DNA from: an uncultured Chloroflexia bacterium
Lineage (GTDB): Bacteria; Chloroflexota; Limnocylindria; Limnocylindrales; CSP1-4
Length of the DNA: 64,000 bases
Direction of reading: 5' to 3'
Assembly: GCA_963813335.1 (NCBI GenBank)
Contig: CAWEYL010000001.1
Span: 512,001 to 576,000, forward strand
Part shown: in pieces, positions 16,424-20,968 of the stretch
How the letters are laid out: each line of letters begins with the position of its first letter
Numbering within the stretch: position 1 is the first letter of the stretch
The notes under the pieces: model-generated
Seen by the model: the letters and a program-made list of their open reading frames with translations, nothing else
Database searches by the model: none
What the model was told of the DNA's origin: nothing
Program-made: the position numbers and the translations under genes

Positions 16424-18432
<2,009 letters not shown>

Positions 18433-18457
18433 TCCGGACCGTTCCTCTCGAACACAT

Positions 18458-18486
18458 CGAAGCCCCCGGCGTCGCCGGGGGCTTCG
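18458..18486. terminator. Hairpin terminator between convergent groEL and the downstream gene
   Basis: cgaagcccccggc-gtc-gccgggggcttcg, 13-bp perfect stem. Confidence 0.75.
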
Positions 18487-18511
18487 GGATTCCGGGCGGC
18501 GATCGAGGCGC

Positions 18512-18856
18512 TCAGTAGGAGGCCTTGCCCTCGACATTGCCCGATGGCGTGATCACGAGCCGGAAGGTCTTCGCGATCGTGCCGTCGAAGTCGGAGTACC
18601 AGTAGATCCCGCTTCCATCGCCCGACGCGATCTCGACGGCCTTGTCGGGCGCCGGGAACGGATACGCGCAGTGGAAAGTCTCCTTGCGCATGTTCTTGTT
18701 GATGACCTGGTTCTCGTCGCAGGTCATCGGGCGGACCGTGTTGGTCGCCGGGTCCCACCAGCCGGACGCCATGTCCTTCGTGCTGGCGGCGGAGGCCGAG
18801 CCGACCGCGGTCAGCATCAGCGCGAGCAGGACGGGGATACCGATCAGTCGTCGCAT
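18512..18856 (-). CDS. Small secreted protein of unknown function
   Basis: Sec signal MRRLIGIPVLLALMLTAVGSASA, GGAGG SD, biased codon usage, two Cys. Confidence 0.75.
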   Translation of the reverse strand: MRRLIGIPVLLALMLTAVGSASAASTKDMASGWWDPATNTVRPMTCDENQVINKNMRKETFHCAYPFPAPDKAVEIASGDGSGIYWYSDFDGTIAKTFRLVITPSGNVEGKASY

Positions 18857-18987
18857 GAGGCGTCCTCCGGAGGTCCGGTCGACCGGTCGGTCGACGTCTG
18901 ACGCCGATGGTCGGCGTCACCCTGGAGCCGGTCATCGGTCGAACGACCTAGGGGCCTCCGGAACCACGACCGATGCGCGGACCCCGG

Positions 18988-19737
18988 CTAGCGCCTGACG
19001 TGACGAGGCTTGAACCGCTTGTCCAGCCGCCAGTGGCCCTGGGCGACGCGCGCCCGGGCAAGCTCGAGGTCGTCGGCACCGGGCGTCGGCGCCAGCGCGA
19101 GGACGAACGTCTCGGCGATCCTCGACGGGAGCGCGGCGCCGTCCAGGTCCCCGACGGCCACCGGGCGCGGGTCCTCGCCGATCTCGGCGTAGCGGACGAC
19201 GACCGACAGGCTCGAGCCGCCAGCCGGCAGCGTCAACGTCTGGCGGTCGGGGATGGCGATCTCCTCGCCCCGGGCGTCGAACGCGAGGCCAGGCTCGACA
19301 TGGAGCCGGTCGCCGCCTGCGGCGCCCGAACGGTCGATCGAGACCTCGAGGCCGGTGACGACCCCGGCGCCGTGCAGCGCCCGGTTCCGGCGGCCCAGGC
19401 GCGCCCGGAAGTACGACTGCTCGTCCGCGAGATCGTCGGCGGTGAGGAGCTGTCCCTCGTAGAAGTTCGGTCGGCGGAGGGCGTGCTCCGTTTCGAGCGG
19501 CCCGAACGCGGAGAGCGCACCGGCGGCGCGTGCCAGGCGCTCCGCAGCGGTGATGCCGCGCTCGCCGAGCGGCTCCGGCCGCTGCTGCAGGTCCTCGGTC
19601 AGGAAGGCGAACAGCTGGAGCAGGGCGATCCCCGGATCGGACTCGTTGGTGTCGGTCCACGACGGCGCGTAGACAGCGACCTCGCGCCACAGGGCGGTCG
19701 CGAGTCGCGGCCACTGCTGCTCGTCGATCACGGGCAT
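18988..19737 (-). CDS. Orphan CIS-related protein: baseplate-J-like N-terminus fused to a fibre-attachment-like domain
   Basis: GGGAGGAG SD; YAPSWTDTNESDPGIALLQLFAFLTE and RPNFYEGQLLTADDLADEQSY...NRALHGAGVVTGLEV...VEPGLAFDARGEEI motifs. Confidence 0.72.
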   Translation of the reverse strand: MPVIDEQQWPRLATALWREVAVYAPSWTDTNESDPGIALLQLFAFLTEDLQQRPEPLGERGITAAERLARAAGALSAFGPLETEHALRRPNFYEGQLLTADDLADEQSYFRARLGRRNRALHGAGVVTGLEVSIDRSGAAGGDRLHVEPGLAFDARGEEIAIPDRQTLTLPAGGSSLSVVVRYAEIGEDPRPVAVGDLDGAALPSRIAETFVLALAPTPGADDLELARARVAQGHWRLDKRFKPRHVRR

Positions 19738-20191
19738 GCTGCTCCTCCCCTGGGTTCGTGCCCGGGCCGGGCTGCCACGCAGTCTCTCACCGAGTGGGCG
19801 GCGGATCACGGGATTTCCGGCTGCTCGCATCGGGACCATCGGCCACTCGGGGCACGGGCGCCGACCCGGCAGGATCCTCGCCGACGGAACGCTATGGCCG
19901 AACCCATGCCCGTCTCGGCTGATTTGGCCCGTCACGACGTTCCGTTCGTGCGTGGATGCGGTCGGAAGATGTCGTCGGCCCATCGATTCGGGCCATCTTC
20001 TGGCCGTTACGTTCCGCTGGTGGTCGTTGTGCCGGGTACGCAGGTTCGGTGGCGATCTTGGCGACTTGGCCGGGCAACCGTTCGAACGTCCGGCAAGCGG
20101 CCGTCGGACCACCGGGACCATCGGGCGTTTGACAGGATCGGCCGCCGCGCCGAGGCTGTCCGCTGTCATCTGTGCTCATCGAAGGAGACCC

Positions 20192-20968
20192 ATGTCCCGC
20201 CGACTCCCCGCCGTGTTCGCGCTCGTCGCGGGCGCCGCGATCGCCCTCACCGCCTGCAGCGGCACGCCCGCCGCCCCGGCCCTGTCCACGCCGGACGAGA
20301 TCATCACCGCCGCCCTCAAGTCCACCGAGACCGCCAAGAGCTTCCACGCCGACGTCACCGTCGACGGCAAGATCTCGGGCGACGTCATGGGGACCGGCGC
20401 CGCCCAGTCGTTCGACCTTGCGGGCACCACCGCCTCGGCCGACGTCGACATCGCCAACAAGGCCGTCCATGCCTCCTTCGCCGTCCCGGCGCTGCTGGGC
20501 CTCTCGGGCGACGTGATCGCCGTGGCCGGGAAGACGTACGTGAAGACCTCCCTGACCGGGCCCCTGTACACGGTCAGCGACACCAAGGACACGGCCGGCG
20601 TCGACCCGTCCGACACGGGCAAGACCATCGACAACGTGGGCGACCTTCTGAAGCAGCCAGGGATCGAACCGACCAAGGGTGACGACGTCGCCTGCGGTTC
20701 CAAGCAGTGCTACACCGTCAACGTCGACCTGACCGCCGACGAGCTGACCAAGATCGCTGGTGCGCAGGCCAGCAGCCTCCCGGTGAAGACCGACGGCACG
20801 CTCAAGGTCCAGATCCGCGTCGAGAAGGACACGAACCACCTGGCCGGGGCGACCGTCGAGGTCGCGTCGCCGTCCCAGGGCAACCTGAAGGTCGACATCG
20901 TCATCTCGAAGTGGGACGAGCCGGTCACGATCTCGGCCCCGCCGGCCGACCAGATCAAGGCCGCCTGA
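20192..20968 (+). CDS. LppX/LprAFG-like lipoprotein
   Basis: GAAGGAG SD, LTAC lipobox, KSFH at start of beta-rich domain, C-terminal SKWDEPVTISAPP. Confidence 0.7.
   Translation: MSRRLPAVFALVAGAAIALTACSGTPAAPALSTPDEIITAALKSTETAKSFHADVTVDGKISGDVMGTGAAQSFDLAGTTASADVDIANKAVHASFAVPALLGLSGDVIAVAGKTYVKTSLTGPLYTVSDTKDTAGVDPSDTGKTIDNVGDLLKQPGIEPTKGDDVACGSKQCYTVNVDLTADELTKIAGAQASSLPVKTDGTLKVQIRVEKDTNHLAGATVEVASPSQGNLKVDIVISKWDEPVTISAPPADQIKAA

Follow-up and report, generated by a model that had tools for sequence, protein, structure and literature searches.

What is an intact gene made from pieces of the baseplate of a contractile injection system (CIS) doing in a genome in which we detect no such machine? 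The gene occupies positions 18988..19737 of the minus strand (249 codons and a stop) in the window, by which we mean the whole stretch of 64,000 nucleotides analyzed here, from contig CAWEYL010000001.1 of an uncultured Chloroflexia bacterium. A preliminary description of this DNA had recognized an N-terminal half of baseplate type, joined to a second half resembling the N-terminal module of fiber- or baseplate-associated proteins of extracellular CIS (eCIS). We confirmed that observation, and the interpretation offered with it was partly supported. Its product is very probably a cytoplasmic protein that belongs to a large and unannotated family derived from the CIS baseplate, in which a Cis11 wedge handle is joined to a Cis13/TssK-type shoulder and which stands alone as an accessory gene. 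The identity of this new and widespread family of stand-alone CIS-derived proteins is well supported; what we say of its mechanism we infer.

Both halves of the protein are baseplate docking modules

Each of the two halves matched a family in NCBIfam. Residues 7–51 align with positions 5–49 of the 659 in TIGR02243, “putative baseplate assembly protein” (E 2.8e-8, 32.8 bits), and residues 87–221 align with positions 4–140 of the 392 in CIS13_fam (NF053767; E 3.2e-22, 79.3 bits), a match that covers its N-terminal baseplate-docking domain. Both scores fall below the curated cut-offs for membership as a whole protein (155.8 and 370 bits, respectively). The same pair of matches was found in 7 of 7 full-length members scanned (counting P0005, a frameshifted close relative), and these other members likewise scored below the TIGR02243 cut-off. 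Pfam gave nothing significant for the window protein, with DUF4815 at E 0.13 and no match to Baseplate_J (PF04865).

A profile built from 27 family members and compared with the sequences in the PDB matched Streptomyces coelicolor Cis11 (9gtp_1K, residues 7–66; E 2.5e-12). The W-T-D-x-N-x-x-D-P-G segment also matched Cis12 of Anabaena, Salmonella, AlgoCIS, the Photorhabdus virulence cassette (PVC) and the antifeeding prophage (AFP) (E 7e-6 to 7e-3), and profile positions 94–166 matched Anabaena All3314 (residues 16–86; E 2e-4). On these matches, the coding region divides into three parts, all on the minus strand. Residues 1–62 (19552..19737) form the Cis11-type N-terminal helix-turn-helix, or handle, assigned from TIGR02243, 9gtp_1K and the Cis12 matches and holding the family-invariant W27 and D34-P35-G36. 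Residues 63–86 (19480..19551) are a third helix and a linker of low confidence. Residues 87–249 (18991..19479) are a baseplate-docking domain of Cis13 type, which has the shoulder fold of TssK and is followed by a tail, assigned from CIS13_fam, Foldseek, All3314 and alignment with Cis13.

An AlphaFold2 model of the monomer (mean pLDDT, the predicted local distance difference test, 77.4) has three N-terminal helices, a weak linker at residues 80–96 (pLDDT < 50), a long helix and a beta sandwich. Its best Foldseek matches were the N-terminal (shoulder) domains of TssK (6n38, 5y0e and 5mwn; E 1e-5 to 8e-5, probability 1.00, TM-score 0.37–0.39), followed by phi812 baseplate chains, an Anabaena CIS baseplate chain, IglD and the receptor-binding protein of phage 1358. 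By sequence, the protein scored far below membership in the TssK family TIGR03353 (11.5 bits, E 0.12; cut-off 100 bits). The Cis13-type proteins encoded in the eCIS loci that we compared (345–663 aa) start directly with the motif R-x-x-Y-F-x-G-x-L-L...E-Q-x-Y and continue into variable domains; the window protein shares this motif and ends just past the docking domain with a short, basic, conserved tail (G-x-W-x-x-D-x-x-F...R). The nearest clusters in the ESM Atlas are unnamed (“hypothetical protein”), and viral DUF4815/DUF6519 clusters score just 0.79–0.81 there, which we take as a lead only.

The shoulder domain is predicted to form a homotrimer

Three copies of the protein folded together scored 0.87 (median of three runs), compared to 0.00 for the best of three controls, with contact agreement of at least 75% between runs and a partner pLDDT of at least 71. 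In the calibration of the tool, which used two copies and alignments of its own, 20 of 30 solved homomers reached the mark that we applied to the trimer, as did 1 of 23 single chains. The confident predicted interface comprises residues 85–128, 150–163, 187–210 and 248–249, which is the shoulder domain, joined by linker residues 85–96. We thus predict a homotrimer held together by the shoulder domain. Because TssK trimers have been solved, passing the mark may reflect likeness or memory, and the combination of a TssK-type shoulder fold with a trimer that passes the mark is a combination of predictions.

The family is large, conserved and under purifying selection

A word-indexed search found 38 relatives of near-equal length, some 30 of which align with the window protein from end to end at 36–89% identity, P0002 (89%) and P0003 (78%) being the closest. 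The alignment of 27 members has 25 invariant columns, the four handle residues named above among them. Searched exhaustively with a profile, 1.84 billion representatives yielded 17,876 matches at E ≤ 1e-3, a number that includes true Cis11 and Cis13 proteins; at E ≤ 1e-30 there were at least 339 cluster representatives, and the best 150 are mostly 240–275 aa long and match profile positions 1–248. Wherever names were available from the source (21 of 56 members in 10 clusters), they read “hypothetical protein.”

The ratio of nonsynonymous to synonymous substitution rates (dN/dS; Nei–Gojobori method, NG86) was 0.18–0.49 in all 42 pairs at 60–99% identity for which it was defined, one more pair having dS = 0; it was fairly high (0.35–0.49) in the clade associated with msrB-msrA, described below. 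The preliminary description had allowed that the fusion might prove unique and unconserved, and what we find is a large conserved family under purifying selection. Broken copies do occur: one locus (L007:10001-10741) has an in-frame TAA at codon 10, and another (L013:10001-10748) and P0005 have frameshifts. These breaks could be sequencing errors in metagenome-assembled genomes (MAGs).

In a FastTree phylogeny of the shoulder domain, a branch with Shimodaira-Hasegawa-like support of 88 separates 135 family rows from 20 N-terminal domains of eCIS Cis13 proteins; the method is a quick one, the support is moderate, and 15 of the 150 representatives were omitted for short matches. On this tree, the family is consistent with a single origin from a CIS baseplate. 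We considered a separate “shoulder-only” class (24 of the 135 rows) and rejected it: many of these rows are sister to full-length forms on short branches, and they are probably 5′-truncated calls on short contigs.

The searches also turned up a second kind of short, stand-alone Cis13 shoulder, which lacks the Cis11 handle but contains a segment rich in Cys (G-C-G-C...; P0036, P0038 and P0157) and which includes a 765-aa tandem form. Two complete short forms of this kind lie outside CIS loci (L198:4871-5449 and L199:4871-5428, both on the minus strand, in genomes G083 and G332).

Some members carry further pieces of the machine

Some members of the family start with a 27-residue segment, M-P-E-Y-L-x-P-G-V-Y-V-E-E...I-P-G-V-x-T-S, that also opens two other proteins: the sheath protein, confirmed by Pfam, of a Streptomyces eCIS locus (L069), and an open reading frame (ORF) of 715 residues on another contig (L092). 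By crude motif counts, this sheath N terminus is present in 20 of the 150 representatives, and a Cis11-type beta-barrel segment, which gives forms of ~335–345 aa, is present in 16 of the 150. The sheath starts are concentrated, since 12 of 15 such rows fall in one clade of the shoulder tree, and in one locus with a sheath start (L011) the carrier genome has neither a sheath match nor a Cis11 match. One representative has an added AAA domain, from which profile positions 1–10 are missing. The pieces occur in the order sheath N terminus, Cis11 N terminus, Cis13 N terminus, which is the gene order of eCIS loci.

Two candidates that appeared, from their tblastn ranges, to be long two-half proteins inside eCIS loci (L063 and L073) were rejected as ordinary Cis11 proteins of 745–792 aa. 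Separately, we noted that a Streptoalloteichus eCIS locus (L052:9926-14490) has a run of four genes (345, 411, 325 and 428 aa) that includes at least three paralogs of the Cis13-type shoulder (the motif is in the first, third and fourth), such that docking domains have multiplied within real CIS loci.

Carriers of the gene show no other CIS component at the locus

The family is found in genomes of soil Chloroflexota, Pseudomonadota, Gemmatimonadota and Acidobacteriota. A scan of a genome collection gave 11 loci with both halves, in beta- and gammaproteobacterial, Xanthobacteraceae, Gemmatimonadaceae and Terriglobales MAGs, while each of the remaining 69 kept matches had one half only and lay within a Cis11 or Cis13 gene; a further 18 two-half loci came from a metagenome scan. 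Among the 33 loci examined, we found no CIS-like neighbor, the sole CIS-like match being the family gene itself. Similarly, when all ORFs of 11 eCIS loci were compared by tblastn with 31 family loci and the window, CIS-like matches occurred at the family gene alone. At the level of genomes, Cis11 exceeded the TIGR02243 cut-off in 0 of 11 carriers, in each of which the only TIGR02243 match was the family gene, and the sheath family PF04984 was found in 3 of 10 carriers other than our own.

The absence of sheath, tube and spike genes that the preliminary description reported for the window extends to the genome assembly, which comprises 2.54 Mb in 7 contigs and is 81% complete. This assembly has no match to PF04984, PF04965, PF06841 or PF05954 (sheath, gp25, tube and spike), and tblastn with the ORFs of eCIS loci finds this gene alone. 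Thus, the check for a resident eCIS that had been suggested came back empty in the 81% at hand.

The same genome does have a single Baseplate_J match (C1:934473-934802; 34.3 bits, E 1.6e-8), 400 kb from the window gene. It lies in a membrane-anchored protein of ~620–730 aa with one transmembrane helix and a Pro/Ala-rich linker (L201; G000:C1, ~933900–935800, minus strand), whose gene is flanked by ruvX and by an FtsA-like gene/alaS; this is a housekeeping setting, and no tail genes adjoin it.

The gene is rare among close relatives of its carriers. Within the genus, a member is present in 2 of 25 genomes and is full length in 1 of the 24 other species; that copy is 38% identical to ours and sits on a different contig from its lipoprotein gene. 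Two other species of the genus carry ORFs of Cis11 length. In one proteobacterial order, a sample of 301 genomes contained 2 with full-length members (the genome at the center of the sample included) and ~17 with eCIS-type clusters, and the two groups did not overlap.

Gene neighborhoods and the groEL/lipoprotein junction

We scanned 103 neighboring proteins from 21 loci with flanks, and found no CIS, phage or integrase family among the 25 commonest Pfam families. In 8 of the 33 loci (L008, L102, L103, L107, L108, L110, L111 and L114) the gene comes third in an operon, after msrB-msrA, on the same strand and usually overlapping the end of msrA by ~14 nt. In these loci MsrA is 80–95% identical while the family protein falls to 38–52%. 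Across phyla no neighborhood is conserved, synteny being confined to Burkholderiales-type contigs. PIN/VapC genes lie near some copies, and cold-shock-domain genes lie near three.

In the window, the ORF is intact from its ATG at 19737, which is preceded at a distance of 4 nt by a Shine-Dalgarno sequence read as GGAGGAG (19742..19748, minus strand), and it has 454 bp of upstream DNA, in agreement with the preliminary description. This divergent intergenic region (19738..20191) is common to the gene and to an LppX_LprAFG-like lipoprotein gene (20192..20968, plus strand; 23.7 bits in Pfam, just below the cut-off of 24). Rfam, consensus and structure scans of it were all empty. No Rfam family scored above threshold in 18300–20400, where two sub-threshold matches are attributable to chance; the 466 nt upstream show no excess structure (z +0.99); and a promoter and terminator consensus scan found nothing, with no sigma-70 consensus in the 454 bp.

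On the other side, the gene is followed by a G+C-rich spacer of 131 nt with two G+C hairpins (18857..18987, minus strand) and then by a co-directional gene for a secreted protein of 114 aa with four Cys and no Pfam family (18512..18856, minus strand), on which groEL (16801..18432, plus strand) converges. The preliminary description had placed the gene between groEL and a lipoprotein gene, which is right for both flanks, except that the secreted-protein gene intervenes toward groEL. It was also right that the gene reads in the same direction as the small secreted protein, but the structured leader that it saw between them has only mild structure (z -2.1; equally good folds arose in 8 of 200 shuffles).

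The groEL/lipoprotein junction (18433–20191 in the window) is variable in the genus. Nine genomes show both genes: in 3 they are separated by a gap of 150–250 bp, and in the other 6 by 1–3.5 kb of unrelated genes, which we named by eye as protease inhibitor-like, subtilase-like, enolase-superfamily, cyclase and small membrane proteins. Since the junction varies in this way, we regard the 1.76-kb insert of the window, which holds both the family gene and the secreted-protein gene, as species-specific cargo. We rejected the idea that the junction is a defense hot spot, given that the cargo in the 6 relatives consists of unrelated genes.

What might the protein do without its machine?

Conservation in bacteria that lack the machine argues that the protein has a job of its own. 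In our view the likeliest one is that the trimer has kept its ability to bind partners of baseplate type, now arriving in trans, and, as a non-productive piece, blocks their assembly, because the docking surfaces are under selection with no partner encoded alongside and because a sheath strand has been added in one clade. We put this forward tentatively, well short of an even chance. In such a scheme, the partners would be supplied by a foreign contractile tail or CIS element, and the protein, as a non-productive wedge or fiber piece, would halt assembly. The decoy that the preliminary description had proposed may be correct; the retained docking motifs and added sheath N-strand fit it, but neither the gene neighborhoods nor the phage genomes gave it positive support. 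That the family amounts to a new class of effector-less immunity strikes us as rather unlikely; its “baseplate mimics” would have collected N-terminal assembly handles (the sheath strand, the Cis11 wedge helices and the Cis13/TssK docking trimer) and, by co-assembling as a dead end, would poison the tails of invading myophages, tailocins or acquired CIS elements. Taken as a whole, a stand-alone protein of CIS descent acting in trans as a baseplate mimic is the best explanation that we can offer, and it falls somewhat short of an even chance.

A number of results weigh against a blocker acting in trans. There is no defense-island context: in PADLOC-DB 2.0 no family was matched by more than one of the 103 neighbors, the matches being of kinase type with one member each. 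The commonest neighbors are ordinary (WS/DGAT, 5; SelR/MsrB, 4; 5′-3′ exonuclease, 3; also cold-shock proteins), and the retention of the gene in the msrB-msrA operon while it diverges resembles a host function more than a mobile defense gene. The N-terminal helices lie outside the confident trimer interface. The handle is 52–56% identical to Cis11 of other phyla, compared to 34–37% for Cis11 of its own genus, and thus shows no sign of local co-evolution. Of 8 relatives in IMG/VR, none has both halves (5 of these viral records have no HK97 capsid match and may be CIS loci, not phages), and tblastn of the window protein against 50,697 phage genomes found no match. Finally, the absence of CIS from carriers is not a significant depletion, since a background of ~17 in 301 predicts fewer than 1 among 13 carriers, and it is read from an incomplete genome of our own and, for the most part, from MAGs.

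Alternatively, the protein may have been co-opted by the host, as a CIS-derived trimer in a cellular role, for example as a stress-linked scaffold or binding platform, with its motifs kept for folding and oligomerization. We rate this about as probable as the blocker acting in trans, again short of an even chance. It would account for the long-retained msrB-msrA-X operon, for the cold-shock-domain genes near three loci and for the position here beside groES-groEL (though that is convergent), and it sits well with the lack of a defense or mobile-element signature in the 103 neighbors and of a CIS in carriers. It leaves unexplained why a clade keeps the sheath N-strand almost letter for letter and why a beta-barrel or an AAA fragment has been appended. 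The rare and patchy distribution of the gene (in the genus and in the proteobacterial order alike), the fairly high dN/dS of the very clade that occupies the operon and the decay of some copies also speak against it.

As the first of its two options, the preliminary description had proposed a domesticated adaptor or regulator for a distant eCIS. A trans-acting accessory subunit or regulator of an eCIS encoded elsewhere in the genome would suit a protein whose two halves are both docking modules of CIS baseplates; our genome is incomplete, and two other species of the genus carry Cis11-length ORFs. We consider it very unlikely. No carrier of the 11 has a Cis11 above the cut-off, the sole TIGR02243 match in each being the family gene; the sheath family is present in just 3 of 10 other carriers and absent from our own assembly, where tblastn returns this gene alone; and in the order sampled, the ~17 genomes with eCIS clusters and the 2 with full-length members are disjoint.

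We regard as comparably improbable a mobile-element gene, a “moron” of a prophage or satellite that excludes superinfecting phages. The patchy, cross-phylum distribution, the insertion of the window copy in a variable junction and the PIN/VapC genes near some copies would be expected of such a gene, but full-length members are missing from IMG/VR and from the phage genomes, phage and integrase families are missing from the 25 commonest neighbor families, and one lineage keeps the gene in a stable msrBA operon. Least credible of all is a functionless remnant, a scar left by in-frame deletion when an eCIS operon was lost, for while the order of the pieces follows eCIS gene order, as serial deletions would yield, and a few copies are broken, there are hundreds of diverged full-length members across several phyla, with dN/dS below 0.5 in every pair for which it was defined, invariant motifs, a conserved end point and tail and, here, a strong Shine-Dalgarno sequence. 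Operon collapse may be the source of the gene, but it does not account for its maintenance.

What the family adds

Baseplate parts of CIS and of type VI secretion systems (T6SS) are usually regarded as belonging to their machines. In this family two docking modules, and in some members three or four, are joined in a protein of ~250 residues that has spread, under selection, through genomes without the machine. If proteins of this family do bind baseplates in trans, they would be natural assembly inhibitors, tools against CIS, T6SS and phage tails, and a new defense logic; if they have another role, they would be a clear exaptation of a virus-derived docking domain. Either way, the protein offers a compact, soluble and probably trimeric handle for studies of wedge-fiber docking. 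A full-text search of the literature, covering main texts, found no description of a stand-alone protein with a Cis11 N terminus and a Cis13 shoulder. The protein scores below the curated cut-offs of both parent families, and we would class it as a new architecture that combines known CIS modules.

Comparison with known systems

The closest relation of the handle is Cis11, the wedge protein of gp6/TssF type (TIGR02243; PDB 9GTP). In the CIS of Streptomyces coelicolor, CIS-Sc, the wedge consists of two Cis11 and one Cis12 (PMC12237407). The first ~60 residues of the window protein share with Cis11 a helix, a W-T-D-x-N-x-S-D-P-G turn and a second helix. Unlike Cis11, the protein covers only profile positions 5–49 of 659, lacks the Baseplate_J body and is encoded outside CIS loci.

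The second half finds its counterpart in Cis13-type proteins (NF053767), whose genes come after those of the wedge in the eCIS loci that we examined and which have the docking domain and its motif in common with the window protein. The Cis13 trimer of Anabaena binds the baseplate through its N-terminal domains, and this Cis13 is All3316 (PMC8894136); the Anabaena chain matched by sequence in our search is a different one, All3314. In contrast to Cis13, the window protein has no fiber, no coiled coil and no membrane helix or anchor; it has an N-terminal extension, and it belongs to a separate clade. The shoulders of TssK and of siphophage receptor-binding proteins resemble it in fold and in the predicted trimer. 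It differs from TssK in lacking the middle and C-terminal domains and in its sequence (TIGR03353 E 0.12), the structural match is modest in TM-score, and we saw no sign of a T6SS around the loci.

For an assembly block achieved without an enzymatic effector there are two precedents, which we cite for function only, claiming no sequence relation to either. Tab, a tail assembly blocker encoded by a Pseudomonas aeruginosa prophage, acts on the tape measure protein (PMC10884400), and a synthetic biomimetic peptide of TssK-TssG blocks baseplate assembly (PMC8406304).

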